A stretch of 64,000 nucleotides of DNA from Lophium mytilinum. Its lineage: Eukaryota. Position numbers and translations under genes: made by a program. This document shows positions 41,302-64,000 of this stretch, in pieces; position 1 is the first letter of the stretch; each line of letters starts with the position of its first letter. The notes beneath the pieces were generated by a model, which was given only the letters and a program-made list of their open reading frames with translations, had not been told where the DNA came from and made no database searches. The stretch lies in assembly GCA_010093605.1 (NCBI GenBank), contig MU004199.1:1240001-1304000 (forward strand), read 5' to 3'.

Positions 41302-42306
41302 TTACGTTTGATCTCTCTTCTCCCTTTCCATAATCTCTCTTTTCCTTCTTAGCCGATCCATAGCACATTCCTCAATCTTGTCCATCAAGAGCAATGGTAA
41401 GGTTTCGTATGGGCTTTGTGCGCCTAGTAGGCGGTAACTAGTTGCGAGGAATCGAATGCGAAAGCCTTCCCACAAGTCTTGGTCCTCGATCGCCGTACTG
41501 TATGGTCTGGGGTAGTACGGATCGTTGAGGAAGAAGGCATGGCATGCTTGCTCCACCCCAGCTATGTCCATCGTGATCGGTTTGCAGCAGTCGAAGTCGA
41601 GTATCCAAATAACGTGCTCTCCCAGACCCGTGGACTTGAAGGACGTTGGCAGGCCTGGTTTGCGTGGAGGTGCCAGCACAAATTCGACGTCCGATGCGTC
41701 CACTTTCGCGGCCCAATGCATTACAGCAAGAGCATCGGCCATGGCGTTAGCGTACGCCAGCGTGTCCAGCTGTAGTTGTTCCATTTGATCGATGTGGAGG
41801 GGATAATTCCGGAGGCTGAAGAGTTGAAGTGCTGACTTTGTGGGTCCTGTGCGACGTCGCCTTCGTCCAAGATATGCTCGAATGAGACAGTCCTCATCCG
41901 CGCGGTTCGACTTTGTGAATTCCTTTCGGCTCGGGGGGCAGAATAAGTCCACGAGATAGTCTCGTCCTGGCCGAGGAATTCTAGGGATGCGCTCGGTAAC
42001 GAGAGACGTGCAATGGTCCAGGCGCTTTGGAAAGCGATGCGACATCTCCTCCCACCACTTGGAATCAGATTGCTCAATAAGTGCGCGGCATTCAGGTACT
42101 AGGTGTGGCATGGTTGTCGACGTATTGGAAAAGGCGTCGATGATTCTCTGATGCGTTTCGTAGTCGTTGCGCACTGAGCGGCCCGGGTTCATGTCTTCTC
42201 TCTTGATCGCATCGGAGCTGACGGTAGTGTCTCCATCGGAGGCCCAGATACTGCCGCAGTTGCCTTTTCCGATACAGCGAAAGCTAATGCTTGAGCTGGG
42301 CAACAT
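41302..42306 (-). CDS. DUF3669-family protein (kinase-like fold), 334 aa, intronless
   Basis: IGKGNCGSIW, KRED, LIRAYLGRRR, FSLRNYPLHIDQM, ALAVMHWAAKVDASDVEFVL, WILDFDCC and NDPYYPRP motifs; family recognised from memory. Confidence 0.85.
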   Translation of the reverse strand: MLPSSSISFRCIGKGNCGSIWASDGDTTVSSDAIKREDMNPGRSVRNDYETHQRIIDAFSNTSTTMPHLVPECRALIEQSDSKWWEEMSHRFPKRLDHCTSLVTERIPRIPRPGRDYLVDLFCPPSRKEFTKSNRADEDCLIRAYLGRRRRRTGPTKSALQLFSLRNYPLHIDQMEQLQLDTLAYANAMADALAVMHWAAKVDASDVEFVLAPPRKPGLPTSFKSTGLGEHVIWILDFDCCKPITMDIAGVEQACHAFFLNDPYYPRPYSTAIEDQDLWEGFRIRFLATSYRLLGAQSPYETLPLLLMDKIEECAMDRLRRKREIMEREKRDQT

Positions 42307-42694
42307 TGTAAGATGCTTTTGATGAAGTTGTTGGTAAGTATGATTGTTGTAGCTCAGGTGTGTGGTAAGATGGGAAGGTGCTATTCTAGTGCTCGCTTTC
42401 CCTAGGTAGGTAGTTCATACATGTCCCCGTGGAACAGTCCATCATGGTGAACCACTGGAAGCGAGATCTTCAAACGCTCCGGACCCACCGCCTCAGGTCT
42501 TACAGAACACAGTAGAAGCCAGCATCTTGTTTACCTTTCGTTTGCAAGCTAACGAGACTCTTCCACCAAGTTCAAATATACAGAGATATAAAGTCTTAGT
42601 TTACCGCAAGAATTGTCACATTCCTTATTCATCATCTTTGTCTGAATCTAGATCTCAACAAACTACTGACTTCTTCATTTCACCCCCGACGAAT

Positions 42695-43203
42695 ATGGCG
42701 TCGCAAGAAGCGAAGATGGAGAGCTGTCAGATTGCAATAGGCTACTGCTTCAGTGACCGCAAGCTTCTTTGGGAAGCTTTACAGGCTGCCGAGCTACCGG
42801 TGCTCATCAGCGATGGCGGATATCACGTCGATGGGAACAAAAAGCTGGCTGTCTTAAGAGATGCTGTGCTAAGGCTAGTGCTCGTGAAAGATGGGTATAG
42901 CGGCAACAAAACAAGAGGTAGGCGTATTATCTTGCCAGCTTGAAAACTTGTGGGCTCATTTTTAAATAAGTTTTAGCCTAGATGAACGATGCTGTGATGA
43001 AGTCGGCGAGACCTAGGTTTCCTCCCACCTCAAACAGGTTGTCGTTTGATCCAACAGAGCTCAACAAAAATCCGTCCCAAGGTAGCGTCGTTTCGTTCAA
43101 TACGATGACGGCCACTGTAAAGGCGCTTCTGGGGGCTGTATTTCTCGACAGCGATATTGACCATGTCGCCCAGGTCATGCGCAACATTGGTCTCACGGCC
43201 TGA
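42695..43203 (+). pseudogene. Stand-alone RNase III-domain gene, inactivated (premature TAG, altered conserved residues, internal inversion)
   Basis: IGYCFSDRKLLWEALQAA...GNKKLAVLRDAVL and TVKALLGAVFLDS resemble RNase III helices. The intron starts at 42918 and there is an in-frame TAG at 42979-42981. The expected middle segment lies on the minus strand (42995-43063). Confidence 0.8.
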
Positions 43204-43649
43204 AAGCTACTCAAGGAAAGCTCAATGGCAGATCGTTAGCCTAGATATCTGGTTCTTTGAGGCCCTTCTGAATAGTTGTAGCGTTATAGGGACTGGGCTT
43301 CTCTCCCATGGAGAAGGTGTGGGCCTGAGGCCAGTTGTTTTGATTTTCTATTTATTTCTTGAAAGTGCGAAGGGAGACGTACAATACAATTCAGCTACCT
43401 TGTAAATTTGACTTGTACAGAAACGGTCCACTGAAGTTGTTTCCTGGCTGAGCTTACAAAGGATTACGCACTCGCGAAATTGAGAACTGCTGAGGTTGCT
43501 AACCATGGACGGATGATGTTCATGTGAGGTCGGTTGAAGGCGGAAAATAGATACTGGACCAGCCCGTCACGCGGGGCATGAAAAAGATGGCACTCTATTC
43601 TACCCTTCTATAGAACTACCCATGTCTGCCGCTGTTTATAGTGCTTCAA

Positions 43650-43870
43650 TGCATTTTTAAAACTACCAATAAGGTAGAAACTCTTTCATTTAGGGTATAT
43701 AGAAACTTGTTAAATTACTATAAGTAGTAGTAGTCTAGTAGACCGGTGTACTAACTACCTACTAAATAAATATAAAACAGCGTGCTATTTAGGAATAAGG
43801 TATACCTATAATTTCTATACTTGTATAGCACCGTTAGAGGTCCTCTAGTATGCTATTACTACTTATAAAC
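43650..43870. repeat. Small RIP-mutated repeat fragment
   Basis: Abrupt AT-rich, TpA-rich, CpA/TpG-poor island between GC-balanced sequence. Confidence 0.6.
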
Positions 43871-44089
43871 CATCAGCTCTGGCAAGCCTAACAGCTTTCT
43901 AGGCCACCTCAGACGGTGTTGAACTGCTTGAGAGTGCCACTTTTTTCCTGCCTAGCGTGCCCGTGCGCCGGTTTTCATGCAGGAACATAACTTACATAAC
44001 TTCGACCTCAACCTCACGTAGCAGCCCCTCTGAAGATCTGTACCCGCCAGCTCCCCCAAAACTCCGCTTAAGCCGCCCTTCAACCGACC

Positions 44090-45577
44090 ATGAGTATGGC
44101 GGTGCTGGCGCGGGCTCTTCGCGCAATCCCCTTTGGCCGGACTCCAGATGGGTTCGTTCGACACACCCGGCCGTCACTCAGAGCGTCCCTCCGCCCGGTT
44201 CGAGTTCTCCCAAAGCGTCGCCATGCCTCCACCACATCCGAACTCGCCACCGATGGCCGGTCTGTTCTCACGCGCACCAAAAATGTGCTGTACGGGACCT
44301 CAATTGCCTTCTTCATAGGCTTCGGATACCTTTACATAACCGACACTAGAGCCAGTATTCACGAATGGCTTGTTGTTCCGGCATTGCGGGCGCTATATTC
44401 CGACGGTGAACAGGCACATCACGCTGGAACTGCCGCATTGAAGGGCCTGTACCAGTTTGGGCTGCACCCTAGGGAGCGGGGGAATCCTGACGCTGCGGGT
44501 GATCTGAGGATTGAAATATTTGGACAGGTCGTGGACAACCCCATAGGCACATCAGCGGGAATTGATAAAAATGCCGAAGTACCGTCACCACTTCTCGCGC
44601 TTGGTCCTGGCATCGTCGAAATTGGTGGAGTCACTCCACTACCGCAGCCGGGTAATCCAAAGCCCAGAGTCTTCAGGGTACCCTCGCAAAACGCCATGGT
44701 CAACCGATATGGGTTCAATTCCGAAGGCGCGGAGCACGTTGCTATGACACTACGCCAAAGAGTCAGAGAGTTCGCCCAGCGTGTTGGTCTTGGTATCGAC
44801 GCAGAGGCCGAACGAATGGTACTAGACGGTGAGGCTGGTGTGCCTCCAGGGTCTTTGGTGCCGGGAAGGCTCCTCGCTGTCCAAGTTACCAAGAACAAGT
44901 CGACTCCGGATAGTGACATCGAAGCCGTCAAAAGAGACTTTGCGTTTGGGATAGCACACCTTGGAAAGTACTCGGACATCATTGTAGTCAACGTGTCGAG
45001 TCCAAACACACCCGGTCTGCGCGCTCTGCAAAATGTTGCGCCGTTGACGCATATTCTAACCACATGCGTCAAGGCTGCGAGCGAAGTTGATAGGAAGACA
45101 AAGCCTGCCGTGCTTGTCAAAGTCAGTCCCGACGAAGACTCGGAGGAGCAAGTGTCCGGTATCTGCGAAGCCATATGGCAATCGGGCGTTGACGGAGTCA
45201 TCGTCGGCAACACGACAAAAAGGCGTCCAGATCCAATTCCAGAAGGATACAGCCTCCCGCCAACGGAAGCAGCCATACTCCAGGAGCAGGGAGGATACTC
45301 CGGGCCACAATTATTTCCAAGAACGCTGGAGTTGGTCAAGCGATATCGCAAGATGCTAGACGAAGGCCCCAAGTCTAGCGACGCCGAATCTCCCACGGAA
45401 TCTCTGAGACGCAAAACTATATTTGCCACAGGAGGCATCACAAATGGAAGTCAAGCGCTGCAGATACTTGAGGCTGGTGCAAGCGTTGCGATGGTTTACA
45501 CAGCGATGATATATTCTGGTGCTGGAACAATAAGCAGGATTAAAGCCGAGATGAGAGATGAGATTCGAGAGAAATAA
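44090..45577 (+). CDS. pyrE: Dihydroorotate dehydrogenase (quinone), class 2, mitochondrial; 495 aa, intronless
   Basis: Arg-rich presequence plus TM segment; NPIGTSAGIDKN, PQPGNPKPRVFR, NRYGFNS, VNVSSPNTPGLR, VKVSPD, NTT and GGYSG motifs. Confidence 0.97.
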   Translation: MSMAVLARALRAIPFGRTPDGFVRHTRPSLRASLRPVRVLPKRRHASTTSELATDGRSVLTRTKNVLYGTSIAFFIGFGYLYITDTRASIHEWLVVPALRALYSDGEQAHHAGTAALKGLYQFGLHPRERGNPDAAGDLRIEIFGQVVDNPIGTSAGIDKNAEVPSPLLALGPGIVEIGGVTPLPQPGNPKPRVFRVPSQNAMVNRYGFNSEGAEHVAMTLRQRVREFAQRVGLGIDAEAERMVLDGEAGVPPGSLVPGRLLAVQVTKNKSTPDSDIEAVKRDFAFGIAHLGKYSDIIVVNVSSPNTPGLRALQNVAPLTHILTTCVKAASEVDRKTKPAVLVKVSPDEDSEEQVSGICEAIWQSGVDGVIVGNTTKRRPDPIPEGYSLPPTEAAILQEQGGYSGPQLFPRTLELVKRYRKMLDEGPKSSDAESPTESLRRKTIFATGGITNGSQALQILEAGASVAMVYTAMIYSGAGTISRIKAEMRDEIREK

Positions 45578-45658
45578 ATGCAGCATAAACTACGGCTTGA
45601 CTTATGTAAACTTACTGTACTTTATTACTCAGCCTTAATAAAAAAGAACTGAAAGTCT

Positions 45659-45859
45659 TGTCAAAGGTATAGAGTCGATGGGAGAATAGATGGATAGATA
45701 GATAGATAGGAATTGTATTGCTTGAGTTCTATTCTACATCGACAGCAACGGAGTNNNNNNNNNNTATCACGTTCAAACGCTCACGGTTTCGTCCCGTTTG
45801 AAGGCTTTTGAGCCTATTATGCGTAAGGATATAACGCTTATGCTATTGTAATCCTTACA
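45659..45859 (-). mobile_element. Lightly mutated Copia LTR ends with 5-bp TSD AGTCT, spanning an assembly gap (solo LTR or collapsed full element)
   Basis: TGTCAAAGG...CCTTACA with AGTCT at 45654-45658 and 45860-45864. It is the reverse complement of the LTR at 58002-58269. Confidence 0.85.
45755..45764. other. Assembly gap (10 N)
   Basis: Run of n characters. Confidence 1.
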
Positions 45860-45869
45860 AGTCTAAAGT

Positions 45870-46970
45870 CTTAAAGGTATAGAGTCGATGTAAGAATAGA
45901 TAGATAGATAGATAGGAATTGTATTCTTTAAGTTCTATTCTATATTAATAGTAATAGAGTATATATATAGTATTAAACACATTATAAAATATTTCTCTAA
46001 TATTCTTATAATATTATCTAATATTTATTATATTATATTTAAATGCTTATAGTTTTATCCTATTTAAAGGCTTTTAAGCCTATTATATATAATAATATAC
46101 TATTATAAACCTTATAAACTCTCTTAAGCGTTATATACTTATTTTATATATTCTTTTTTAAATAGATAGAGAGATAGATAGATAGATAGATAGATAGATT
46201 AATAGATAGATAGATAGATAGCATTTTTTCTTCTATATATAGATAGATAGATAGATAGAATCTATAGATCTATATATTTATATAATAGAGTTATATCTAT
46301 ATATCTATATATCTATATATCTATATATCTATATATCTATATATCTATATATCTATATATCTATATATCTATTTAGTATCTAATCTTATATAGTCTACTA
46401 TTTTAGTAAACTACTTCCTACTAATAGTTTAGTAAATATATTAGCTATTTATTCCTTAGTATTAAGGTAGGCTAGCTTTATTAATCTATTTTAAATATTT
46501 TCTCTTATAGAATAATATTATATATCTATATATTTAGTTTTTAAGTAGTGTTTAGAATTATTAGCTAGTTCTATAGCTAATTAACTATCTATAAATAGAT
46601 AGAATTCTTCTATATTTCTAATATTAAGTTAGATTAATATATATATTAAGTATATATATTCTTTTATAGTTTCCTCTAAAGCTATATATTTAGCTTTACA
46701 ACTAGATAGTACTATAGATTTCTATAGTTTACTATTCTAGCTAATAGGAATTTTTCTATAGGAGAAGTAGTTGCTACTTATTAATTTTCCTTCTATTATA
46801 TTACCCCTATAATCTGTATTAGAATAGCCTAATAAATAAGGTGCAGGATTATTAGGAGAAAATCTAACACTTATTTCATGCTTAGGCTTATATAATAGAT
46901 ATTTCTAGATCCTTTTTAAAGCTTTAAAGTAAACAGGACTAGAATTAGATATAAATTAAGCGCATAGCTT
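45870..46970 (-). mobile_element. Ty1/Copia 3' remnant: end of RT, RNase H and 3' LTR (~45870-46097)
   Basis: De-RIP reading gives ISWNSKLQKS..LSSCEAEY..., KHIDIQYH..RE and ADIFTKPL. The LTR matches the 45659 and 58002 copies, with a purine tract before it on the minus strand. Confidence 0.88.
46293..46372. repeat. 8-bp tandem array (ATATCTAT)n next to (GATA)n tracts
   Basis: Directly visible. Confidence 0.85.
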
Positions 46971-49751
46971 AATATAAGACTTCCCCCTATTAGTATTATC
47001 TAGTAAAAAAGGGCACTTACCTATATCTAGAGTATATATATATCTATAGTATATATCTTTTAAGTATTAAGACTAGACTATTATAGGTTAGTACTATAAT
47101 ATAAGGCTAGTAGAAGTACTTATAGCTATAACTAGAAGGTGCTAAGCTAAGTATAGAAAGAGATAAAAAGAAGTCTAAGAAAATAGTAAGGAGTCCCTAT
47201 ATAGAATTATAAGGTATTATTACTATTATATAATTTATTATACTATAGAATTCTCTATATATAGTTAATATTTAGATATCTATATATAATATATAGATTT
47301 ACTAGTATAATACTATACTGCTATATATCTAGGGCAATTTAAGCTATATAGACCTCTTATATATATTTATAGCTTAGTTAGATTTCTTTATAGAATTAAT
47401 ATCTATTATTCTCTAAATTCTAATCTATATAATCTTAGAATATTATAATATTCTAGGCAATAATATCTTTAGCTCGCACTATTACTCGGGCCTTTCTAGC
47501 CCCCCTGCGCAGCAGGGGGGCCGCCAGCTTACTAGCTTCCTAGCTTACCAGCCATAAACGCTAAAAATAGTAAATACTATTAGGGCTTAATATATCTAGG
47601 GGTTTTAATTTCTAATAGTCTATTTATAGCGCGCATCTATTTTCTATATATAATTCTAATTGCCTCTTACTTCTTCTAAAGCTTTCTATTTACCTTTTCC
47701 CGTTATAGTTATACTTTAATTTCTTCCTTCTTAAGTATTAATTTACTCTTTTTAGCTACTATATTCTAAGCGGCGCCGGCCTATAGTAGGCCTATATTCT
47801 TAATTTACCTATATAGGTCTCTTTTAGAATCTAATTAAACCTAGCTAGTAGCTATATAGCTAGCTAATTATCTATATATAATATTACCTACTAAGACTAT
47901 ACCTATTATATATAACGTAACTCTATAGAGTGCAGGGGATAGAAAGGTAGATAATAGAAAGAAAGAAAGAGTTATAGAACTAGAAATAGATAGCTATAAT
48001 ATATTAAAGGCTTAGCCTCTAATACTTCTACTAATATATAATAGTTCTATACTAAGTATTTAAAACCTTATAATAATACTACTATATAACTACTAGCCGT
48101 CTATATATATAGTATATAATAATAGCTTATCTATAATAATACTCTAGCTTACCTTTATATACTTAAGTATCTACTCTTATCCTCTATTATTCTTCTAGGT
48201 ATTTAAAATTATATTACTAAAATACTTAAGTTTTTAGCTAGATATTAGTATTATAATATTATTTAAATCTTAGACTAGCGGCGTTTTATTTTAAATCCTC
48301 TATAGGTTAATTAGACTTAGGGGGGGTATAGAGTATTAATTAATAATAACTAATAGATACTAGGGTATAATTTCTACCTTCTTCTATTACTCTAGAATAG
48401 TTTCTTCTTTAAAGGTCTTTATTTAAGAGCCGTAAATAGTATTTAGAAGTTCTATTATTATTATTAAATTCTATTAAGCTAGTATAGCTTCTATTAGAAT
48501 CTATATAGCTATTCTATCTAGGCTAGTTATAAGAAGAAAACTATTTACTACTAAGTAGCTATTAGATAAAAACCCTATCTTCTATAGTATATTAAGCTAA
48601 GCGCCCTTTCTTATAGTATTATTTAGCTATTAGAAATATATAGTAGATCTATTAGGCCTACTATAAAATAAGCTATTATAATATATTCTTCTAGATTTAG
48701 ATTAAATTAATTAGAATCTAGGGCGGTTTACTAGTATAGAATTAGCGTAAGGGTATATATATAGTATAGATATATATATATTCTATCTTAAAGATAGGTT
48801 TAAAGAAAGAAATTAAGTATAGAGAGCCCTATAGATAAAAAGAATAGAAAAGCTAAAATAAAATAGAAAGGCTATATAATATATAGTAGTATAAGGCCTA
48901 TTAAATAGCTACTTATTAGATAGTAATATTATTCTATTCTATTTCTTATAGATATAGAAAGTATATAGTAGAAGTATATAGTAGAGTATATAACTTATAG
49001 TATACTATAGAAAGTATACTACTACTAGTAGCTAGTATAGTCTTCTATAGTATAGCTAGTAGTTATAAAAGGGCTAAAGGGCGGCTCTATAGTAGAGTAT
49101 ATAATATTTAAATAGTATATAGCTTTATAGATAGCTATTATAAAGTAGAGAGGCTACTAAGAAATAAAAGGGCTATAAAGAGTAGAAAGTATATAATAGA
49201 AAGTATAGTAGAAGAGATAGCTCTAGTATACTATAGAAAGTCTATAGCTATATATAGTAAGTATAAGCTTTTATAGTATAGCTAAAAGCTATAGTATAGC
49301 TAAGAGCTATAGCGTAGCTAAGAGTTATAGCCTAGCTAATAGAGATAGAGCTAAAAGATAGTAGATAGATAGTAGTAAATAGAGTATATAGATAGATATA
49401 GATTATATTATATACTATCTACTCTATAATAAGAGAATATAACCCCTCTTATATACTTTTTAGCCTAGCTAGAGAAAACTCTTATCTAAGGGCTTACCTT
49501 CTAGTAAAACCTTAAAAAACTAGGTATATAAAGTCTATCTTCTATATCTCTATACTAGTTTACTTCTTAAGCCTATATTATTTTTTCTTTTTATCTATTT
49601 ATAGATTAATATATATATCTATTCTTTTAAGCTATATAAATAGTATTAAGATAGGCTATATTTAATAGTTACTACTATTATATATTTTATCTTATAGCTA
49701 ATACTATTTTATAATATTTTATATTATTTCTTTTATAAGGCTAACTATATC

Positions 49752-51332
49752 TATTAGAGCTTAAATATATATAGAAAATAGGCTTATATTTAAGAGTAAT
49801 AAGAATATAAAGCTAGAAAGTATAGAGGTATAGAGGCGTAAGCTATAGTTATAGGCTACTTACCTAGCTTATACTAATATATCTCTATAGTGTAGGCTTA
49901 TATAATAGTATACTTAATATATAGCTATAATATATCTCCCCCCTCTAAAGAAGGCCCCTTTCTCTCCCCTTCTAGCTAGGCTTCTAGTTATAATAAACTA
50001 TAAACTAGAGAGTCCTCCCTTTTATTTATATAGGTCTAGTAGCCGTATATTATTATACTAGGTAAGATAGATAAGTTTAAATATATTTAAATTAATATTA
50101 AGTAGTAAGGCTATTAGGCGAGCTTATTACTTATAGCTAGAGCTAAATTAATAATTAGTATTATTTCTAATATATAGCTAAACTATATACTAATTTCTAG
50201 CGTAATTATATATACGCAGCTATATAGTAGCTATAAAACTAGCTATAATAGGGCTATATAGAGCTATATAGTATACTATATTTTCTTCTATTATTTTTAG
50301 AAGAGAATTATAGCTAAATTAGTATTATATATATAGGCGTAGGCGTATATATAGTATAGATATAGGTATAGTATAAGTATAGGCGTAGATAGGCGTTTAA
50401 TATAGAAATTAGATAAGAATTATTAAGAGGCTCTAGCTATAGATAGATATAGCCTATAGTACGGCCGTAGCTTTAAAAATAGTAGCTAGCTTATAGGCTA
50501 TTAATATTTAAATTTATAGAAATTTATATAGGGCGTTTAAATAAGTAATATATAGTATTATAGGTAGTTAGTTTTTAGATATAAAAGCTATAGCTTCTTT
50601 AATAGTAGGCTAATAGGTATAGTCTATTAAGAGAATTATAAGAATTATAAGGATTTTAATATTATAGATAATAAAAAGGGGCCTACTAGTAAGGCTAGTA
50701 ATGCAGGCGTAGTTATAAGATAATAATTTTTCTTATAGTTCTAACCTTAAGCTTTAATTTCTATATATACTATAATCTATTCTTCTACTATAATAAGCTA
50801 TACGCATGCAGTAGGTTCTTTCTTTCTCTAGCCCTTTCTAGCCTATTATAACTAAGCTTTATCTATCTTTATCTTTATTATAGGCTATAGTATAGTATAG
50901 ATAATAGTTATTTAGGCTTATATAGCGCGCTAAGGTAGTTAAATATATAAGGGACTCTATAGGCACCCTATAGGTTCTACTTAGTACTACTTATAGTAAT
51001 AAATATAAGAATAAGGTATAATAAGATTACTAAAGTATACTAGCTTAGTTAGTTGCTTATTATAGATATTATAGTGGGGTAATTATAGTAGTAAGGTAAT
51101 TAAGAGGTAGCTCTATAAGCTATAAAAATTAAGGTAAAGCCTATTTACTTCTAGCCTCTAGAAGAAGCTTTATATTATATTAGGGCTTAAATATATATAG
51201 AAAATAGGCTTATATTTAAGAGTAATAAAAATATAAAGCTAAAGAGTATAGAAATATAAAGGCGTAAGCTATAGTTATAGGCTGCTTATTTAGCTTAGGC
51301 TAATATATCTCTATAAATATATAGCTATAATA
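49752..51332 (-). mobile_element. Small non-autonomous LTR element (TRIM-like), 1.58 kb
   Basis: Direct repeats at 49752-49932 and 51178-51332, TSD ATATC on both sides (49747-51, 51333-37), and a polypurine tract (AGAGGGGGGAGA on minus) abutting the left LTR. Confidence 0.8.
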
Positions 51333-52999
51333 ATATCTTATAGAAGTTACTATCTATATACCTCTAGCTAAATAGTATACTTTAGTATTTCTCTTCTACT
51401 AACTAAAATAGAGTATTTTTCTTTATTCTCCCTCTTATTAATACTATTCTCTAGTATATTTAGCTACTACTATTCTCTATACTTATACTCTACCCTATAT
51501 ATTATAGTATTAGTAGCTAGATTAGTTAGGTATTATTACCTTATAGTACTTTATTAGGGTGCATCTACTAGAAATTATCTAGTTTATTATTCTTTCTCTC
51601 TTTATCTATCTAGTAGATAGCTCTATTACTCTAACTATACTAGTAGTAACTATAATAATCTCTCTAAGAAGCTTTAGATATTCTCCGCGCACTAGTAGGC
51701 GCCTATAGATAATAGTAGATAGCTATAAGTACTATACTATTTAAAGCCCTTCTTTTAACTACTATCTATAGTACTATTCTCTAAGTAAAGCTATAAGTAC
51801 TATACTATTTAAGGCTCTCTACTTAGCTACTAGTAACTATTATAACGCTATAGGCACTATATATACTATTAGTAGAAGTTAATAGAAAAAAGAGTAAAAA
51901 CTCTATATTACTACTCTAGAGGTATTCTATTTAGCTTCTAGGGGTTCTATATTATAATAAATAATATAAGAGCCTATTTTCTATATAGATAGATACTAGT
52001 TAAATAGTTTTTATATTTATTTTAATAGTTATTTCTCTATTTTAGTAATATAGTTTATTATAGTTATTCTCTAGCTACTAAACTTTTAAATAGCTATATT
52101 ACTATTACTAACTCTATTATTACCTTAAGTATCTACTTTATAGTAATAAGACTATAGGTTTATAGTACTACCTTATATAGGCTACTTATAAAGCTTATAG
52201 TATTTTAAAAGTTCTATTTTATTAAAATCTATATAGCTCTTAGTATATACTTTTATTATAGCTTAGCTAAGCTAGTACTTATATAGCTAGAATATACTAA
52301 TATCTAGTAGCTAGTATAGGTGCGTTATATATAGTAGTATTAGAAATAGAAGAATATTATAAATATTATAATATTTAATAATCTATTAAGTACTATAGAT
52401 AGTATAGCTATCTAAAAAAAGTATTCTATAGGCACTTTTCTATTACTTAGCCGTCTATTAATTAAATAACTAGATTTATTAGAATACTAGCTAGTTATTT
52501 ATATAGGCTATTTTATTAGCTTTAAGTATATATTTAGATTAAATAGTTAATTAAGTAAACTAGTATATCTACTTAACCTTCTCTTTAAGTACTATATTAA
52601 CTAAGATTATATAAATACTAGGCTTAGCAGCACTACTAAGTAAGGAAGGCGGTAGTAGTATAATTATATTAAATCGCAGCTAAATCTCTTTATAGCTACT
52701 ATAAGCACTAATATCCTTACTATTAAAACGTTGTATTTTTCTATTATATATATAATAAAAGTTATAAAGCTTATAATTTTCTATTAATTACGCTTAAAAC
52801 TACTAATTTTAGAGTTATTTTAAGTTATAAAGCCTTAGTATTAAATTTACTTTTAGAGGAATATACTACTAGTATATAGATATATAAATAATAATAAACC
52901 CCTTTTCTATTTCTTATAACTTAACTCTACTAATTTTCTTCTAATTTACTTAATTTTTACTATATTTTCTTACCGCTATACCTCTTAAAGAGCTTAATT

Positions 53000-54990
53000 C
53001 TAATACTATTACTAAAAGGTCTTATATCTATCTATTTAAGTTAGAAACTCCTTTAAAAGAGCCTAAAAGAAAGTTAATTAAGAACTATTCTATTAAATAA
53101 AATTAGCCTATTAAAAAGGCTAGAAGGTTCTTTAGTATATAGAAAAAGCTAGAAATTCTTACCTAGTAGTACTACTACTATATAGAAGTATAGCCTAGTA
53201 AGTAGAGCTATATTAAGCTAGGCTTACTTCTATAGTAGCTAGAAGCTAACTACTATTCTTCTATAGGTAATAAGGTAGCTACTTTTTAAAAGGTTTCTCT
53301 TAGTACTATAGGCTTCTAGAAGAAATAAATAGAGGCCCTTTCTAATACTCTATATAATAGCTATATAGTAGCTAGATCTATCTAGCTTAGTAAATAGAAT
53401 AATCTAGAATAATAACTATATACTAGATTTATTAAAAAAAGAAAAAGAAAGCTATAAGTTTAAGTATATTAGTTTTAATAGTATTCTAAGGCTATATTTA
53501 AGAAGCTATATCTAGCCCTTATAGTAGCTAATTAGTATATCTAGATCTTCTCTTAGGGGTAGTTTTAAGGGTTTCTATTATACTCTAGAATCTCTTTTAG
53601 AGTAGTAACTAAGAAGGTATTAAAACCCCCCTAATTACTATAAATAGAAGTACTTTCTTAGTTGCTTTTTAACTAGAAAATTACTTAACTAATTTATATA
53701 CTAGCTACCTTCTAGAGCACTATAATAGACTAGCTACTAGCCTAAATTAATACCGCTAATTACTAGATATATAGGTAATAGTTTTATCCTTTAAGAATTA
53801 TAAATATAGATAAAACTTCTATTTCTTTTAAGTAGGTTAATTACTATACTTATAACTTTATAGGCTCTATTAAGGTTACCTCTAAAGTAATTAAGTTAGG
53901 TAATAATAAGTACTAAGCTACCCTAATCCTCTATATATATATAGATAGAGTAGCTAGATATAACTCTATACTTATATTTAAGGGGTTATTAAAAGAGGGT
54001 AGAACTATACTAAAAAATAAGTAAGATTTATATATAAAAGGGGTGGAAGTATATATTAATAAGACCGCCTATAATAATAAGGCGCTATTTTATAATTAGA
54101 TAAAGAGAGTATATATTCTAGCTAATTAGAATACTAATAAGTAGCTGCTAGAGTCTCTTCTTTTACTTAATACTATAGTATTCTATAAGACTAAGGCTAT
54201 TAAGAATCTCTTTATAGAAAATTAGGTATTTATATTAATAATTTCTGGAGGCTATATAGGCTATCTATAGCCCCTTAATATAGCTATTAATAAGCCCTTT
54301 AAGAAGTAGATTATAAAGAAAGTTAATAATAGAATTAATAAGAAAATTAAGGTAGAAGAGAATACTAAGAATAATATTCTATATAATAAGAGAATTCTTA
54401 CTACTATAGTAGTTATAGAGGCATAGAAGAAGCTTATAGCTAGACCTAAGCTTATAATTAAGGCCTTTAAGAATATAGACCTCTTACTACTAGCTAATAG
54501 TAGTAAAGACTATAAAATTTATATTAAAACATTTATCTATAGAGAATTTAACCTTTCTAGATAGAGAAATATACTAGAGGTACCTCTATATATTAAATAG
54601 AAGCTTAATACTAATAATAATAAGCTTAAATTTATAGATAGAGATAATATACTATATAATTAGAGCTAATATAAGAGCGCTATAAAGACTACTCTATTAA
54701 GACTATATAAAAAGAGAAATCTACCTAGTATAGCTATTAGAAAGTAATAGCTTATTAAGAGGCTTCTAGCCTATAATATAAAAAGAGTAGAAGAATTAGA
54801 TTTAGGCGGCTATTTAAATACTCTAAATAACTCTATTAATTTAACTATTACGTCTTATAATAGCTTTCTATCTTCTAGTATTATAGCTAGTAGCTTAAGT
54901 AATAACTCTATTATCTTAGAATCTAGATATAATACTTTTTAGAGGAGTTATAGTAGTTTAGAATTATAGAGTAGATATACTAAGTAAATA
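53000..54990 (+). pseudogene. RIP-destroyed pogo transposase (CENP-B-type HTH + DDE_1), approximate ends
   Basis: De-RIP reading gives RR.FS..KKLEIL, FS.GWF.GF..R and GGCTGYLQPLD.AINKPFKK (~54245-54305). Confidence 0.8.
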
Positions 54991-55224
54991 GAGGACGCCT
55001 AAAAGAGGCTAGAGTTATAAGAGGGAGAAGGGCTAATTTTTTATTCTTTTTACTATAAATATAGTACTAATCTTAATCTATATACTATAGATTTCCTACC
55101 TAGAGTTATAGCTAATTAATTATAATATATTCTATCTTATTCTATCTAAAAGGGCGTTCTAATCTATCTAATATTAGCTATTCTATATCCTCTAGTAGTA
55201 GCTACTAAGAGTATATTATAAGGA

Positions 55225-55970
55225 AATAGAAAGTCTATAGAAGAGCCGCGCAGCCTTACTATAAATCTACTTAAGAGTAATAACTTAATTAAATATTTAT
55301 TAACTCTTATATACTTTTTATAGGTTAATAGCGTATATATAGGTAAATAGCGCGCTTAATTATAGCTAGACTATATTAGTAGATTTAAGAGATTTATAGT
55401 TTAAAGGTATATATATATTAAATATTTTATAAGTAAATTTATCTAGTTCTAGTATAGCTTAATAGTTAGTATAGTACTTCCGCAGATTAAATTCTTAATA
55501 TAATAAGCTTAAGGAGCTTTTATTGCAAGAATTTAATCTATAGAAGTATAGGGAGTAGAAGGTTAGTAGTACTCTTTTTATAGTTTAATTTCTAGCTAGA
55601 CCGCTTTCTTTTTACTTAAATATTTATTAATTCTTACACGCTTTTTATAGGTTAATAGCGTATATGCGGGCTAATAGCACGCTTAATTATAGCTAGATTA
55701 TATTAGTAGATTTAAGAGATTCGCGTACTAAAGAAAGTATAATAGCTAGAGGTGTAGACTATTTTTATACTCTAGGCCTATATATCTTATTTAAACTATA
55801 AATCTCTTAAATCTACTAATATAATCTAGCTATAATTAAGCGCGCTATTAGCCCGCATACACGCCGTTAACCTATTAAAAGCGCATAACTATTCTATAAT
55901 AATTAACTAAGTTATTACTCTTAAGTAGATTTATAGTAAGGCTATATAGCCCTTCTATAGACTTTCTATT
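55225..55970. repeat. Foldback/MITE-like structure: ~180-bp inverted arms plus an internal direct copy
   Basis: 55225-55405 is the reverse complement of 55790-55970. A third partial direct copy lies at ~55612-55722. Confidence 0.75.
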
Positions 55971-58001
55971 TTATGCGGTCTATTATAAAAAAATTTACAA
56001 CTTATTTAAATTTCTATTAATTTTATTTAAACTAGAAGTAAATTAATTAAGTTTATCTAATCTATTTACTATTTAAAGTAGAACTCTATATAACTATTAT
56101 AGAGGTAGAAATCTATACCTAGAAACTTAGTAAAATATATACTACTATTATACTAAACTTTATCTTCTACTTAATACTAAGGTAACTATCTAGATACTTA
56201 TAGCCTCTACCTAGGCGTATTATATATTTAATAACACGCCTACTAGCTTATAGGCGTATATTAATAGGCACGCAATTCTCTTTCTTTACCTAACCTTAGT
56301 ATTATCTCTTAGTATTTTAGAAAGAGATTCTAGAACCTCTAGATATATTATATATCTAATCTATAGGTTAATAATAGATAAGAATATACTTCTTATTTAT
56401 TTTAAAGTATAGAGAATTAATAAAGTTATATATAGTATCTATAAAATAAGAATTAGTAAAGTAATATATAAGAAAGGGGGAAAATTATATATAAATTACC
56501 TTAAAGTCCCCTATAGATACGCTTATTTTTATAGAAGTAGTTATAATAATAAGGTATATATAATTACTAGCTATTATAGGCTATTTTAATATACTATAGC
56601 ACTAAGCTAATATTAAAATTAAAGATAGAAGCTAATAGGCGCTTAATTAGATATAGCTAGCGCTACTAAGTCTAGTATTTATATAATCTTAGTTAATATA
56701 GTATAATAAAGAGTAGAAAAATATTACTATTAGCTAAAATATATTTACTAACTATATAGAATTTATAGCTAGTTATTATTCTAGACTTAATATAACTATA
56801 TATAACTTCTATAATAACTTTCTATTACTTTTCTATATCTAGCTAAATACCTATCTTATTATAATTATATAGATCTATATCTTAAATACTATAGTCTATT
56901 ATCTAGTACTCTAGTATTATAAACTAAGTACTAAAAGCCTTTTAATTCTTAGCTACCTCTTAAGTAAGCTTCTTAGAGTTATTAGTATATATAATATAGT
57001 CTAGGTACTACTAGAGAAATTAATATATCTAATACTTACTATAAATACACGCCTAGTATTAAATAAGGGGTTAGTAATATACTAAGAAAAAATATAGTTA
57101 TATTTATTCTAGATTATTTAATAGGTAATATATATCTAAATAGTAAGTAATTAATTAAGCTAGGTAATAAGGCTATTCTCTTTAGATAGTATTAGTAGCT
57201 TATTAGTAGCTAGCCTATCTATCTATAATACTGCGCTATATATATATAATTTAACGCGTCTAATTAGAGTATTATATTCTATATAGATAGTAAGAATTAA
57301 TAGATAAATACCGCCTAAGATAGCACGCAATATATCCTGCACATATTTTTTAATATTCTAGGCACTTCTCTCTATTATTATAGTTAATATTAGGGGTATT
57401 ATAATAGGGGGGGTGGCACAGCTAGTAAGCTAGAAAGCTAGTAAGCTAGCGGCCCCCCTACTGCGCAGGGGGGCTAGAAAGGCCCGAGTAGAGCCCGCTA
57501 TTAGCCCTATTTATCTAATACTAAGTACTAGACCGGAATTTATTCTAATTATAGTTATTATAAAATATATATATATTACTAAAAGCTTTCTTATTTCTTC
57601 TTATAAGGATGTTAGATACTTATAATATTACTATAGATAGTAGTTTAACTAAACTAGAAGATACCTATAAAGGTTATATAGACTTATAACTTAAGCTTCT
57701 AACTTCTTATTCTAGTAGTTTTACTATAATATTATAAATAATCTTAGACGCAGCTAATAGAGAATATAATAGTTATTATATTCTTAGACCGGTAATTATA
57801 AAGTTAGAATATAAAACCCTAATACTAATAATAGACGTATATCTAAATACTAGAGTTAGAAGAGAATTTAAACTAGCACTCTATATTATTATTAGTAGAA
57901 GACATTAGACTATAATCTTACTTTATTCCCTACTAGGTATATTACGGTAGTTTCTTCTTACTATTAGGCACGCACAATAATAAAGGCAGAAAGGAAGTAG
58001 G

Positions 58002-61000
58002 TGTAAGGATTATAATAGTATAAGTATTATATCCTTATACATAATAGGCTTAAAAGCCTTTAAACGGGACGAAACTATAAGCATTTAAACGTAATATAAT
58101 AAACGTTAGATAACGTTATAAGAATATTAGAGAAACGTTTTATAATGCATTAAATGCTATATATATATAACTCTATTACTATTAATATAGAATAGAACTT
58201 AAGTAATATAATTTCTATCTATCTATCTATCTATCTATCTATTTTTATATTAACTCTATACCTTTAATAGGTTATAAGCATAGATTGTACTACGCAATCT
58301 ACAGCTATATAAAGCACTAACAGGCAGGTTCCATCTTAAAATTAACTAGATATTAATTAAAATTACCCAAATCAATAAAATATTAACTAGAATTATTTAA
58401 ATCAACTAAATATTAGACAAAAACAACGCCGTTTACTATCTTAATTACTATCTCCAGCGTATAAACCTACTATACCACCCTATAAGTAGTTTTAAGCACA
58501 AAACAAAGCCAAAAACAAAGCCAAAATTAAAGGAGATAAAGTTATTAACTATAAACCCGCTATATAACAGCTAGAACGCAAGCTAGAATTATAAATCTAT
58601 TACAAATAAAATTAGACTAAAGAAATATTACCTATTTATTATATCTATTAATATAAAGCTTCTATAAGCTTATATTACATTATAAATTACGTAATTAACC
58701 TTCTAACGTCTATTATCTATTACGTATTAAATCTAGATACTCCAGATTAGATTATAACCTTTTATCCTATTATTTTATCTAATATAAGATAGAGAAATTG
58801 ATTAAAATTTAAAATATTTCTCTTTCTATCTATCTATCTATTTATTAAATATATAGATACATAGAATTTATCTATCTATCCATTTACTAAATACATAGAT
58901 AGATAGAAATCTATCTATTTAATAAATCTATAGATATATAGAAATCCATCTATTTATCTATCTATCTATTTGCCTAACGGGCTATCTATCTATCTATTTA
59001 ATCTAAAATGGATAAAATTAGTATTACTAAGCTAGTTAGTTAATCTAACTATAAAGTTTAGGCTCTAAGAGTACAATCTCTCTTAGTAGAAAAAAGTTGT
59101 AGTAATGCTATTAGCAGTACTACGCCTATTCCTATTAATAAGGAAAATAATGTAAAAGTATTAGCCACTATTAGGCTTACTATAGAGGACGGTCCTCTAT
59201 TATAATTATAGTATTCTACTACTGTAATAGAAGCTTAGAAGCTACTAAAAAAGCTATATAGCCCTAAGGGCTTTAGTTCTAAATTCCTTATTTATAAGGA
59301 ACTATTTAATACTATTTTATCTAAGTTTTTAACTATAGAAGACTACTTAAATAAGATAAAATAGTTAATAGATTAATTAAAAGCAAAAAAGCTTAAATTA
59401 CTAAATTAAGTTGTTGTAGCTTAGGTTCTAAATAACCTAATGGACCCCTATAATAGCTTTATAACTATAGTTACATAATCCTATAGGGAAAATTTATCTA
59501 ATATTAAACTAGATAATTTATTCTCTAATTTAATAGATAAAGCAAGATAATAGAAGTCTAAAGAGTATAAAACGGCTCTATTTAATAGAACTAAAAGGTT
59601 CTTACTAAAAAAGAATAGAGTAGAAAAAATAAGATATTATAAGAAGTGTAAAATAGCTATGCACCTTATAAAGGATTATTTCTATCTATTTCTAGAAAGA
59701 GCTCTAAAATGGTTTAGAATAAAGGAGTACTTTAAACTACTAAAAGATAATAAGAATAAGGAAGAATCCTTACTTACAGAAGAATCTAACCCTAATAACT
59801 AGGCAGATTTCAATATAGATCTAGATGCAGCTAAAGTAAAGGTATTTCTAGCATCCTATTATACCCCTAATAATAAAGCTAATTATATATTAGACTCCAG
59901 GAGCACAAGCCATATAATAGTAGATAGAAATCTATTTACTAGTTATAAGGAGCAAGCTATTATATTTAATTAGGGAGAAAATAAAACTATAACTATAGAA
60001 GGTGTAGGAAATGTATAATTAAAACTAAATAGGAATATATTTCTACTAGAAAAGTGCCTTTTTATACCTAACTTTAGATATAATCTAATATCTATAAGTA
60101 AACTAGATTCTATAGGAATAAACGTTATGTTTAAGAATAAAATAGCTATTATATATAAAAAGAATAATATACTAGTAATAGCATTACTTAAAAACTCTTT
60201 ATACTATATAAATATAGAGAATACAACGCTTTTTATAAAATAAATAGATAAAAAGATAAATTATATATATAAATAGATAGATAAAAGCGATTTAATAAAT
60301 ATATATATAGATAGAAATAATCTATCTATTTAGTACTAAAAAATAGGCTATATAAGCTCTAGAAAGCTTAGTATACTATTAGGTATAAATATAAAAGAAC
60401 CTATATAATATAAAACCTATATAAAAGCTAAAATAACAAAAAATAAGAGAAATAAGGAAATAATACTAAAAACGGTAATTTCTTTATAAAAAGTCTCTTT
60501 AGATTTAGCAGGGCCTATAAATCTACCTAGTTTAGGGGGTAATAAATACGTTATCTTCTTTATAGATGCAGCTTTAAGATATATAGAATATAAACTATTA
60601 AAGTCTAAAGATAAAGCTTATAACGCCTTTTTAGAATATAAAGCTAAGGCTAAAAATATAAATATAGGAGATAAAAGAAAAATATAAATCTTTAAAACTA
60701 ATAATAGGGGAGAATATATAAATAAGAAGTTTAAAATAACTCTTTTAAAAACAGGTATAACCTATTAATTCTTAAGCCCCTATACGCCGGAATAAAACGG
60801 CTTAATAGAATAAATTAACTTAACTATATTAAATATAGTAAGGGCTCTATTATATATAGCTAATTTACCTTTTAATCTATAGAGAGAAGCTGTAAATGCG
60901 GCTGTATATATATATAATAGAATACCGCACTCTAGCTTAAAAGATAAAACGCTATTTAAGCTATATTATAAAAGAAAAGCTAAAATAGATAATATAAAAA

Positions 61001-62050
61001 TCTTTAGCTCTATAGCTTATTATAAGGTTAAAATACAAATAACTAAATTAGAACTAAGAGCTAAAAAGGCTATAGTATTAGGCTATAGTTTAAATATATA
61101 TAGACTATTAGATTTAGAAAGTAAAAAGATCTTTTAGGCAAGAGATGTATCTATAATAGAAGGCTTCCTTAATAAAAGAAATAAAAATAATGTTAATAAA
61201 AAGAAAAATCCTTTAGAATATGTTATTAATATAGAGCTACTAAAAGATAATACTATAAGTAGTAATACTAAAAGATAATACTATAAGTAGTAATACTATA
61301 AGTAATACTATAAGTAATAATACTATAAGTAGTAATAATTTAATAATAGATAAAAGCTCTAAAGATAAATTAGCTATAAAACTATCTAGAAATCTATCTA
61401 TTTAAAGATATATATAAAATCTAAATTTAATAAATAGATATATAGATAAAAATTAAGTATAATTATTAAATATATATATAGATAGAAACTAAACTTAATT
61501 ATCTATAAATATATATATAGATAATCTATCTAAAGATAAATTAGCCTTTATTATTAGTAATAACAGCAAGCTAAATATATATAAATAAGCTATAGAATCT
61601 CCTTATAATAATAAGTAGAAAGAAGCTATATAAATAGAAATAGACTAGCTTAATAAGTAAAATACCTAGAAGTTAGTAGACTTACTAGTAAATAGAAATA
61701 TATTAAAAGAATACTGGGTTTATAAAATTAAAACTAATATAGATAATAATATATCTAAATATAAGATAAGATAGGTAGTAAAAGGTTTTAGCTAAGTCTA
61801 TAGTATAGATTATAAAGAAACCTTTACTAATACCTGCCGCCTAGAAGTATATAGGCTATTACCTATAATAGCTACCTATTATAACTAGAAAATAATATAA
61901 TAGAACTTTAAAAATGCATTTATATATATAGAATTAGATAAAGAACTTTATATAGAATAACTATATAGTTTTAATAAAAATAATAGTAATAAAGTCTATA
62001 AACTAAATAAAGCCTTATATAGTTTAAAATAATTACCTAGATAGTAGTAT
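58002..62050 (+). mobile_element. Ty1/Copia retrotransposon, 5' part: LTR 58002-58269, PBS, gag, protease, integrase, start of RT; broken at ~62055
   Basis: The LTR is followed by GGTTATAAGC (RIP form of the GGTTATGAGC Copia PBS). De-RIP reading gives YILDS.STSH (protease), DLAGP...GGNKY, TDNGGEY and PYTPEQNG (integrase), and WV.KGF.Q.YGIDY.ETF and KALYGLKQ.PR.WY (RT). Confidence 0.92.
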
Positions 62051-62054
62051 ATTA

Positions 62055-63440
62055 TTATTATTATTAAATTCTATTATACTAGTATAGCTTCTATTAGAGT
62101 CTATATAGCTATTCTATCTAGGCTAATTTATAAGAGAAAACTATTTACTACTAGATAGTATTTAAGTAAAAATCTTATTCTCTATTATATCTAGTATTAG
62201 GCGCCCTTCTTCTTTATATTTTACTATAGGGGATATATAGTAGGTCTATAAAAACTACTATAAAATAAGCTATTAAAATATATCTTTCTATATCTATCTA
62301 GAAAGGTTTATTATTATCCTTCTAAATTTAGGCTAAGTAGAATCTAGATAGAAGGCTAGTATAAAATTAGCGTAAGGGCCTATATATAAGTAGTACGCGC
62401 GCGGGGCCTTTATCTAAGGTAATAATAGTAAAGTAAGTAGTAGCTATATAGGCTATTTAAATAGAAAGGCTATATAGTATATAGATAGTATATAGTAGAG
62501 GTATATAGTAAGTATATAGTTTATAGATAGTCTATTATTTTATAGATAGGCTATAAGAGTAGAAGGGCTATAAGTAGCTATAAAGTATAGAGTTTATAGC
62601 TATAGTAGTAGATATAAGCCCCTATAGTATAGCTAATAGCTATAGAAGGGCTAAAAGTATAGAGTATATAGTTTATAGTCTATAAGTAGAAAGTATATAG
62701 CTACTTATAGTAAGTCTAAGCCTTTATAGTATAACTAACTAATAGTAGAAAAAAGCCGCGTATATATACTATTATAAAGTAGGTAGACTATTTAAAAATA
62801 GAAGAGCTATAAGAAATAAAAAGTATATACTATAGAGTATATAGTAGAAATCTAAAGCTAACTATCTATTAGTTCTAGTATACTATAGAGAGTATATAGC
62901 TATATATAGTAAGTATAAGCCTCTATAGTATAGCTAAGAGCTATAGCTTAGCTAAGAGCTATACTGCGGCTATAGTTAGTAATAGTAGGGTTATTAGTAA
63001 TAGTAAGACTATTAGTAATAGTAAGGCTATTAGTAATAGTAAGGCTATTAGTAATAGTAAGGCTATTAGTTATAGTAAGGCTATTAGTTATAGTAAGGCT
63101 ATATATAATAGTAGGGCTATAGTATTAAGTAGAAGGGCTAGATCTACTCCCTTTCTATTTCTCTTACTATTAAGAGGTAGAGTAGTAGGTCTATTTCTAA
63201 AATATATTTATATTATAGAGCTATAAGAGTTATATATAAAATAGAGTTAGGCGTAGCTCTTCTACTAGAACTCTCTACTATAGGTATAGCTTACTAAATA
63301 TATACCTCTATTCTATATATATCTAATTTACTTTATAAGCCTATCTTATAGCTAGCCTCTACCTCTTAATAGACTAATATATATATCTATTCTTTTAGGC
63401 TATATAAATAGTATTATTAGTAAGGGTTTAATTCTTTCTC
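62055..63440 (-). pseudogene. RIP-destroyed relic homologous to the cargo region (~48450-49660) of the outer TIR element
   Basis: Shared collinear blocks, e.g. ATTAAATTCTATTA..CTAGTATAGCTTCTATTAGA.TCTATATAGCTATTCTATCTAGGCTA (~48463 vs ~62063) and AATATATATATCTATTCTTTTA.GCTATATAAATAGTATTA (~49608 vs ~63376). Confidence 0.7.
62989..63102. repeat. 18-bp tandem repeat GGCTATTAGTAATAGTAA, ~6 copies
   Basis: Directly visible. Unit length is a multiple of 3, compatible with a former coding repeat. Confidence 0.85.
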
Positions 63441-64000
63441 CGCTATAGATTTACTAAGAGTTAGAGCCTAGTAAAGGGGTAAGGTTCTTAGAGCTATCTA
63501 TTATTACTATTATATACTACGCCCTACAGCTCTTTTAGTTCTAGTAGCTATTTTGCGTTACCTATATTATTCTTATAATAATAGGCTAACTATATCTTAT
63601 AGATAGAGGTATTAGCCTAATAGTATACCTAGTAGCTAGCTATTATTCTAATAGTAACCTAATACTATACGGCTACTATGCCTTCTATCTACTAACTAAA
63701 CTTATTATCCTCCCTTAGCTACTACCTGCATCTTTATCTATTCTAGCACTATGTTAATACATTCTTCCCCTACTTCTAAGTCTATTTCTAGCTCTCTAAG
63801 TTCTAGATTAATATCGCCGCAGCTAAGTTAATATTAATATAATAAGGATTAACATTATCTAATATAGTTAATAGTGCTAGAATTCTCCCTATCCTTGCTA
63901 TAAGTATAATCTTAGAATAGAATAAGTATAGTAGTATCCTATTCTATTACTAGGCCTTCTACTTCTACTAGTAAATGCAGGCGCCGGCTTATAGTCTAGG

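Follow-up and report, generated by a model that had tools for sequence, protein, structure and literature searches.

The 64,000-nucleotide stretch of Lophium mytilinum DNA that was analysed (hereafter the window) is eukaryotic and fungal-looking. It contains a fungal RNase III-domain gene with two exons on the forward strand (positions 42695-43203), which is located between a gene for a DUF3669 zinc-finger protein and a gene for dihydroorotate dehydrogenase (Table 1). The last 18 kb of the window (45600-64000) form an AT-rich block with a GC content of 0.25 and strong RIP-type indices (TpA/ApT 1.59; (CpA+TpG)/(ApC+GpT) 0.17), and a run of N residues is found at its edge (45755-45764). The same indices are 0.66 and 1.27 in the first 40 kb. 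A short RIP-like stretch was also observed 360 nt downstream of the RNase III-like gene (43561-43960), with a GC content of 0.40, a TpA/ApT value of 1.93 and a value of 0.73 for the second index. RIP was considered as a source of the gene lesions described below and was set aside, as the indices of the gene body are ordinary (TpA/ApT 0.79; (CpA+TpG)/(ApC+GpT) 1.37).

Table 1. Features of the RNase III-like locus and its neighbours in the window (forward-strand numbering)
Feature	Position	Strand	Remarks
Upstream neighbour gene, DUF3669 zinc-finger	41302-42306	-	334-aa ORF, E 1.4e-25
Exon 1	42695-42917	+	ATG at 42695; phase 1 end before GT at 42918
Family-type intron	42918-42976	+	59 nt, GTAGGC...TTTTAG, phase 1
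Public-model intron	42918-43057	+	140 nt, GT..AG; acceptor CAG 43055-57 inside the inverted block
Exon 2, family-type model	42977-43203	+	stop TGA 43201-43203; holds the inverted block
In-frame TAG	42979-42981	+	second full codon of exon 2 in the family-type model; second disabling lesion if the intron sits at the family position
Left inverted-repeat arm TGA	42995-42997		at breakpoint
Inverted core, unambiguous	42998-43060	-	63 nt; with the repeat arms encodes the missing domain middle SSVGSNDNLFEVGGNLGLADFI
Right inverted-repeat arm TCA	43061-43063		at breakpoint
Downstream neighbour gene, dihydroorotate dehydrogenase	44090-45577	+	adjoins the RNase III-like gene

A phmmer search of a protein library with exon 1 was used to obtain an overview of the family and yielded 175 proteins at E <= 0.001. 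The top match (P0002, 122 aa) is the product annotated for the gene studied here; it is labelled as a hypothetical protein of Lophium mytilinum and, in UniRef, as an RNase III domain-containing protein, and its residues 1-74 are identical to the translation of exon 1. Full-length relatives have a length of approximately 145-200 aa, and the closest ones found share approximately 50-60% protein identity. No close orthologue was obtained from word-based homologue searches, which returned 1 and 5 matches. The assignment to RNase III is supported by Pfam, as 18 of the 19 rows of the family alignment A1 match PF14622 and 17 of the 19 match PF00636, and the relative P0152 passes the Pfam RNase III models with 44 and 41.1 bits. 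The A1 profile also matches chains of Drosha, Dicer and bacterial RNase III with E-values down to 7e-17. Compared to RNase III at large, the family members are stand-alone domains of approximately 150 aa, and no dsRNA-binding domain was seen in their sequences. A second difference concerns the signature itself, which reads NERLEFLGD in Drosha and nkrLAllGd in the family consensus, so that K and A replace the two glutamates of Drosha. With both classical RNase III signature glutamates replaced, the family may not be a conventional nuclease.

Genomic relatives were collected by a scan of metagenome contigs with alignment A2, which identified 80 related loci (best 60% identical). Gene models were built for these relatives by enumerating GT-AG introns for 62 exon pairs and keeping the best-scoring model. 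A phase-1 intron was found at the same profile position in 43 of 43 distinct spliced relatives, with a length of 38-80 nt (median 54), and the second exon of the relatives covers approximately positions 72-146 of the profile in one piece. Placing an intron of this type in the window leads to a gapless alignment to the profile. Many of the library proteins among P0003-P0151 are only 75-110 aa long and stop soon after exon 1 or run into the intron; P0009, for example, reads ...QARGTITTV where P0008 reads ...QARVAFDES. The conserved phase-1 intron thus seems to be missed often by gene callers. Tandem gene copies on the same strand and approximately 1.1 kb apart were observed at L008:369-1991, L011:316-1991, and L042 and L045:397-1973, where the upstream copy of L042 and L045 reaches only approximately 21 bits per piece. 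A decayed family copy, interrupted by in-frame stops and by a break of the frame midway through the domain, is present at L074:600-1120 and is close to the intact L036. The RNase III-like family seems to be prone to pseudogenisation.

The initial annotation of this locus had proposed a frame-preserving micro-inversion of approximately 65 bp inside an RNase III-domain gene, and its coordinates and translations proved correct when the open reading frames were checked. The ORF on the forward strand (42982-43203) reads MNDAV, then MKSARPRFPPTSNRLSFDPTEL, then NKNPSQGSVVSFNTMTATVKALLGAVFLDSDIDHVAQVMRNIGLTA, the last of which starts with NKNPSQG. On the opposite strand, the ORF at 42978-43214 includes SSVGSNDNLFEVGGNLGLADFI, which is encoded by 42996-43061. 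Flipping positions 42995-43063 (69 nt, 23 codons) keeps the frame. A six-frame profile scan of all 64 kb detected three parts of the domain: a forward match to profile positions 2-73 in exon 1 (74.5 bits), a minus-strand match to positions 78-102 and a forward match at 42982-43200, which covers only positions 100-145 (53.2 bits). Apart from these, only one noise match at E 6.8 was reported. The three parts are collinear, with the middle part on the opposite strand, and the coding sequence for profile positions of approximately 78-102 is found solely on the minus strand (42996-43061), while the rest of the gene matches the family on the forward strand. In alignment A1, the minus-strand peptide fills the gap of P0002 exactly and ends directly before the shared NKNPSQG motif. 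The flipped block codes for the final part of one helix, all of the next one and the turn after it, in the centre of the domain; read as it now lies, it yields 22 unrelated residues.

Native and flipped versions of the gene, scripted from the window sequence, were scored against a family profile of 150 positions built from 29 full-length homologues. For these read-through versions the family-type intron was removed and the in-frame stop was read as X. The whole read-through scores 171.2 bits with 42995-43063 flipped and 134.3 bits in the native orientation, and exon 2 alone scores 82.9 and 53.2 bits, respectively. The flipped gene is therefore better by approximately 37 bits (approximately 30 bits for exon 2 alone), which bears out the micro-inversion that had been proposed. 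The annotated product P0002 reaches 126.6 bits with the same profile, in two pieces. As a null comparison, the block was swapped at the same place for 20,000 random stop-free blocks of 24 codons from the window. None of them reached the flipped score of 82.9, and even the best fell more than 19 bits short (mean 52.3, sd 1.5, maximum 63.4). The native block was equalled or exceeded by 4,078 of the 20,000, and therefore its native reading is noise.

The limits of the inverted block are well defined. The block had been described as bounded only by TGA...TCA, and this holds: the arms are 3 nt long, the positions next to them on the outside and on the inside are not complementary, and a repeat search found no inverted repeat longer than 3 nt bounding the block. 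As the ends read TGA and TCA, each breakpoint can be placed only to within 3 nt. By chance, an inverted repeat of at least 3 nt is found at the flanks of 2.3% of random 63-nt cores (4,641 of 200,000). The flipped alignment is gapless over profile positions 2-145, and the junctions have therefore neither gained nor lost bases; likewise, the spacing between the intron and the conserved SN in the window is that of relatives such as L013. It had also been pointed out that both orientations are open and in frame. This is true and yet less special than was implied, since 60% of the comparable flips made within the window's long ORFs (1,726 of 2,892) remain stop-free as well, so that openness in both orientations is unremarkable.

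The six-frame profile scan of the 80 metagenome loci allowed us to ask how the middle of the domain is encoded in the relatives. In 76 of the 80 loci, profile positions 80-100 are spanned on the same strand as the flanks. The four loci without a spanning match are L058 and L067, whose contigs end just past exon 1, L041, and L074, which is a decayed copy with in-frame stops. A minus-strand match to positions 78-102 was found in none of the 80 loci; three weak minus-strand matches (E < 1) fall on other profile positions. Compared with the 80 metagenome loci, the inversion is unique to the Lophium mytilinum gene. A near-identical orthologue with the uninverted block was found neither in the protein library nor among the metagenome loci, and the orientation that we take to be ancestral would therefore be the one indicated by protein homology to the family, and not one read from an exact reverse complement in an orthologue.

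To determine which orientation is present in sequencing data, Logan contigs of the runs X1, X2, X3 and X4, four of the six sequencing runs that a search returned, were compared with positions 42500-43500. The contigs of X1 and X2, which derive from one sample, cover this whole region at depths of 126.7 and 153.9 without a single difference. This sample is possibly the source of the assembly, and the reads are perhaps its very reads. A contig of 584 nt from X3 covers 42922-43500, including both junctions, with no differences (100% identity over 579 nt). X3 is assigned to a different sample, study and organism and could be the same strain relabelled. No strand-changing joints were reported in the contigs of X1, X2 and X3, and no contig of X4 was placed on 42500-43500. 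Contigs drop rare variants, which means that a minority orientation may be hidden in these data. The X3 contig begins at 42922, inside the intron, and continues unspliced to 43500. X3 was considered as a possible RNA run; with 33 million letters and a longest contig of 30 kb it looks more like low-coverage DNA and is thus uninformative on splicing.

Even though the gene carries a clean inversion, this is not its only lesion. A TAG codon lies in frame near the start of exon 2, where it would be disabling only if the intron sits at the family position. All 705 intron models of the window were enumerated, and no stop-free canonical GT-AG model keeps the whole domain, even with the block flipped; the best such model in the flipped state reaches 143.8 bits and loses the end of exon 1. 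The TAG remains after the flip, and therefore flipping the block back would not restore the gene. GC-AG introns with donors at 42938, 42934 and 42922 are stop-free when flipped (163.6, 161.4 and 155.9 bits, respectively), and these models were set aside because exon 1 would read into the intron of the relatives' best GT-AG models and because GC donors are uncommon among introns.

The coding sequence was also compared with the relatives at conserved positions. At 23 columns that are conserved in at least 85% of 72 relatives, the window deviates at four, where the relatives deviate at 1.25 on average and four deviations are also found in 6 of the 72; as a sign of decay, the four deviations would be a weak one. 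Two of the affected positions belong to the RNase III signatures. Directly before the D of the ..LGD.. signature, the window has an R in place of the G found in 72 of 72 relatives, and a K stands in place of an E shared by 97% of the relatives (..EA..GA.. signature). The replaced E is presumably the catalytic glutamate. The acidic and glycine residues of the two signatures are accordingly not fully conserved in the window copy. Searches against Pfam gave 13.1 bits (E 0.11) for the native exon 2 with PF14622 and no RNase III match for exon 1 alone; the 22-aa minus-strand peptide and the 78-aa minus-strand ORF had no Pfam matches, as these pieces are too short. The flipped read-through (171 bits) lies within the range of 132-194 bits seen for the relatives (22 of the 43 models), and since it scores like its relatives, the damage appears to be recent. 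From the damage seen in the coding sequence we infer that function was lost, and lost recently, so that the RNase III-like gene is probably a young, recently inactivated pseudogene. The earlier suggestion that the inversion knocked out this nuclease is supported as far as the knock-out is concerned. It has to be amended in that the inversion is not the sole lesion and is accompanied by the TAG and the replacement of two near-invariant residues.

Three other explanations were weighed against this reading. An assembly or sequencing artefact, or a chance likeness of the minus-strand peptide to the family, would make the inversion only apparent. The minus-strand match of 25 positions is indeed modest when taken in isolation (11.9 bits, E 0.014), and the contigs of X1 and X2 may go back to the source reads of the assembly. 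Against this, the match covers precisely those profile positions that are missing, in frame and gapless, at a score that the null blocks never approached, and no difference from the window is seen across either junction in the independently produced Logan contigs of X1 (depth 127), X2 (depth 154) or X3. This makes an assembly artefact very unlikely, and artefact and chance likeness taken together can practically be dismissed. Only marginally more credence is given to a reversible or polymorphic invertible element that turns the nuclease on and off, a state that the initial annotation had raised as a speculation. Such a switch could draw on the fact that both orientations are open and in frame, which is met by the high proportion of comparable flips that are open by chance. 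The inverted repeat flanking the block is just 3 nt long, with no longer arms found in the repeat search, and a segment of 63 nt is shorter than the DNA persistence length, which argues against looping by a recombinase (PMC8755829). Moreover, the contigs of three runs from two samples contain a single orientation, that of the window, and no strand-changing joint, although minor variants may be lost in contigs. The TAG, too, would persist in the flipped state. Nothing supports a regulated switch.

More weight, albeit still little, is given to the possibility that the gene is still used. According to this explanation, the inversion created a 3' splice site, and splicing of 42918-43057 would remove the TAG and the scrambled block in frame to leave a 122-aa RNase III-like protein. 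This is exactly what the public gene model describes: exon 1 joined to 43058-43203 gives P0002 without a mismatch, by way of an in-frame intron with canonical GT..AG ends that takes out the TAG together with almost the entire inverted block. The CAG acceptor lies within the block and exists only in its present orientation, and both flanks are well conserved (74.6 and 51.1 bits). If true, a structural mutation would have been rescued by instant intronization, and the cell would continue to produce an RNase III-like protein of reduced length. The product itself speaks against this, as it lacks approximately 27 family positions (profile positions 73-99). These correspond to the helices at residues 70-80 and 83-93 in the confident structure model of P0152 (mean pLDDT 95.2, pTM 0.91), in which the 22-residue block aligns to residues 78-99 (alignment A1). 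The AlphaFold2 model of P0002 has a mean pLDDT of 72.0 and a pTM of only 0.64 and is of low quality around the junction (pLDDT under 50 for residues 69-83), and P0002 scores 20.4 bits with PF14622, under the gathering cut-off of 35. The intron of 140 nt is also far outside the 38-80 nt found in all 43 spliced relatives, and the earlier AGs at 42976 and 42981 would lie nearer to the branch region of the family. The public model may just be the means by which a gene caller kept the frame open. Taken from the sequence, a gene in use in this form therefore appears unlikely.

We consider it highly probable that exon 2 of a small gene for a stand-alone RNase III domain underwent a single, balanced micro-inversion of 63-69 bp, which arose by a microhomology-using accident and now resides in a recently inactivated pseudogene. 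As only a 3-nt inverted repeat flanks the block, an accident of replication or repair that used this microhomology would be its most likely origin. Such an accident could have consisted of two template switches at a replication fork or of microhomology-mediated break-induced replication. The 3-nt repeat agrees with the template-switch or microhomology origin that had been suggested initially, in either form. The sequence would nevertheless fit several routes, as a 3-nt repeat is compatible with template switching and with break rejoining alike; a microhomology-using accident is modestly favoured over the simple rejoining of two breaks, and a recombinase origin is unlikely.

Template switching and microhomology-mediated break-induced replication have both been proposed for comparable events. 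In a study of pure microinversions between human and chimpanzee (Sci Rep 2022, PMC8755829), 59 of 59 definite cases were flanked by juxtaposed inverted repeats of 3-75 nt, of which 11% had only 3 nt. For very short repeats, microhomology-mediated break-induced replication is argued there to be a better explanation than two polymerase jumps, and recombinase looping is argued to be physically excluded for segments of such size, which lie below the DNA persistence length (PMC8755829). The four-point template-switch model (Genome Res 2017) includes one ordering of the switch points that inverts a fragment and does nothing else, and switching between strands copies the fragment from point 2 to point 3 as its reverse complement (PMC5453318).

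The Lophium block resembles the human-chimpanzee set in that it would be a reverse complement lying in place, no bases are gained or lost, an inverted repeat marks the edge, no recombinase is needed and the same origins (template switching or microhomology-mediated break-induced replication) are proposed (PMC8755829). With regard to the edge, TGA and TCA are found directly at the core, as in pure microinversions. The block differs in its length, which is 63-69 nt as opposed to 17-33 nt in the stringently filtered part of that set, and in its setting, which is a fungal nuclear coding exon whose ancestral state is read from protein homology, where the primate comparison could use a near-identical sister genome (PMC8755829). 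The short template-switch mutations portrayed in PMC5453318 are mostly much shorter and are seen as clusters of mutations, whereas in Lophium a whole block is replaced. In relation to the Pfam RNase III family, the relatives match the models, while the Lophium copy is disrupted and its annotated product does not reach the Pfam cut-off. Among the papers listed by a literature search, none dealt with a microinversion in a fungal nuclear gene.

The locus is a new instance of a known, rare type of mutation, found in a gene that belongs to a known domain family and is decaying, and as such it is ordinary, though unusually clean. It establishes no new biological principle, and its main value lies in providing a clean example and in correcting an annotation. 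As an example, it shows cleanly, and within well-defined limits, how a natural pure micro-inversion has altered the coding exon of a eukaryote. The inverted block is approximately twice as long as the members of the best-curated primate set, with the same minimal edge repeat of 3 nt (PMC8755829), and it can usefully inform models of template switching and of repair by microhomology. As an annotation, it illustrates a pitfall, since the oversized intron placed by a gene caller conceals both the stop codon and the inversion. What the databases list as a 122-aa 'RNase III domain-containing protein' of Lophium mytilinum is more probably a pseudogene.
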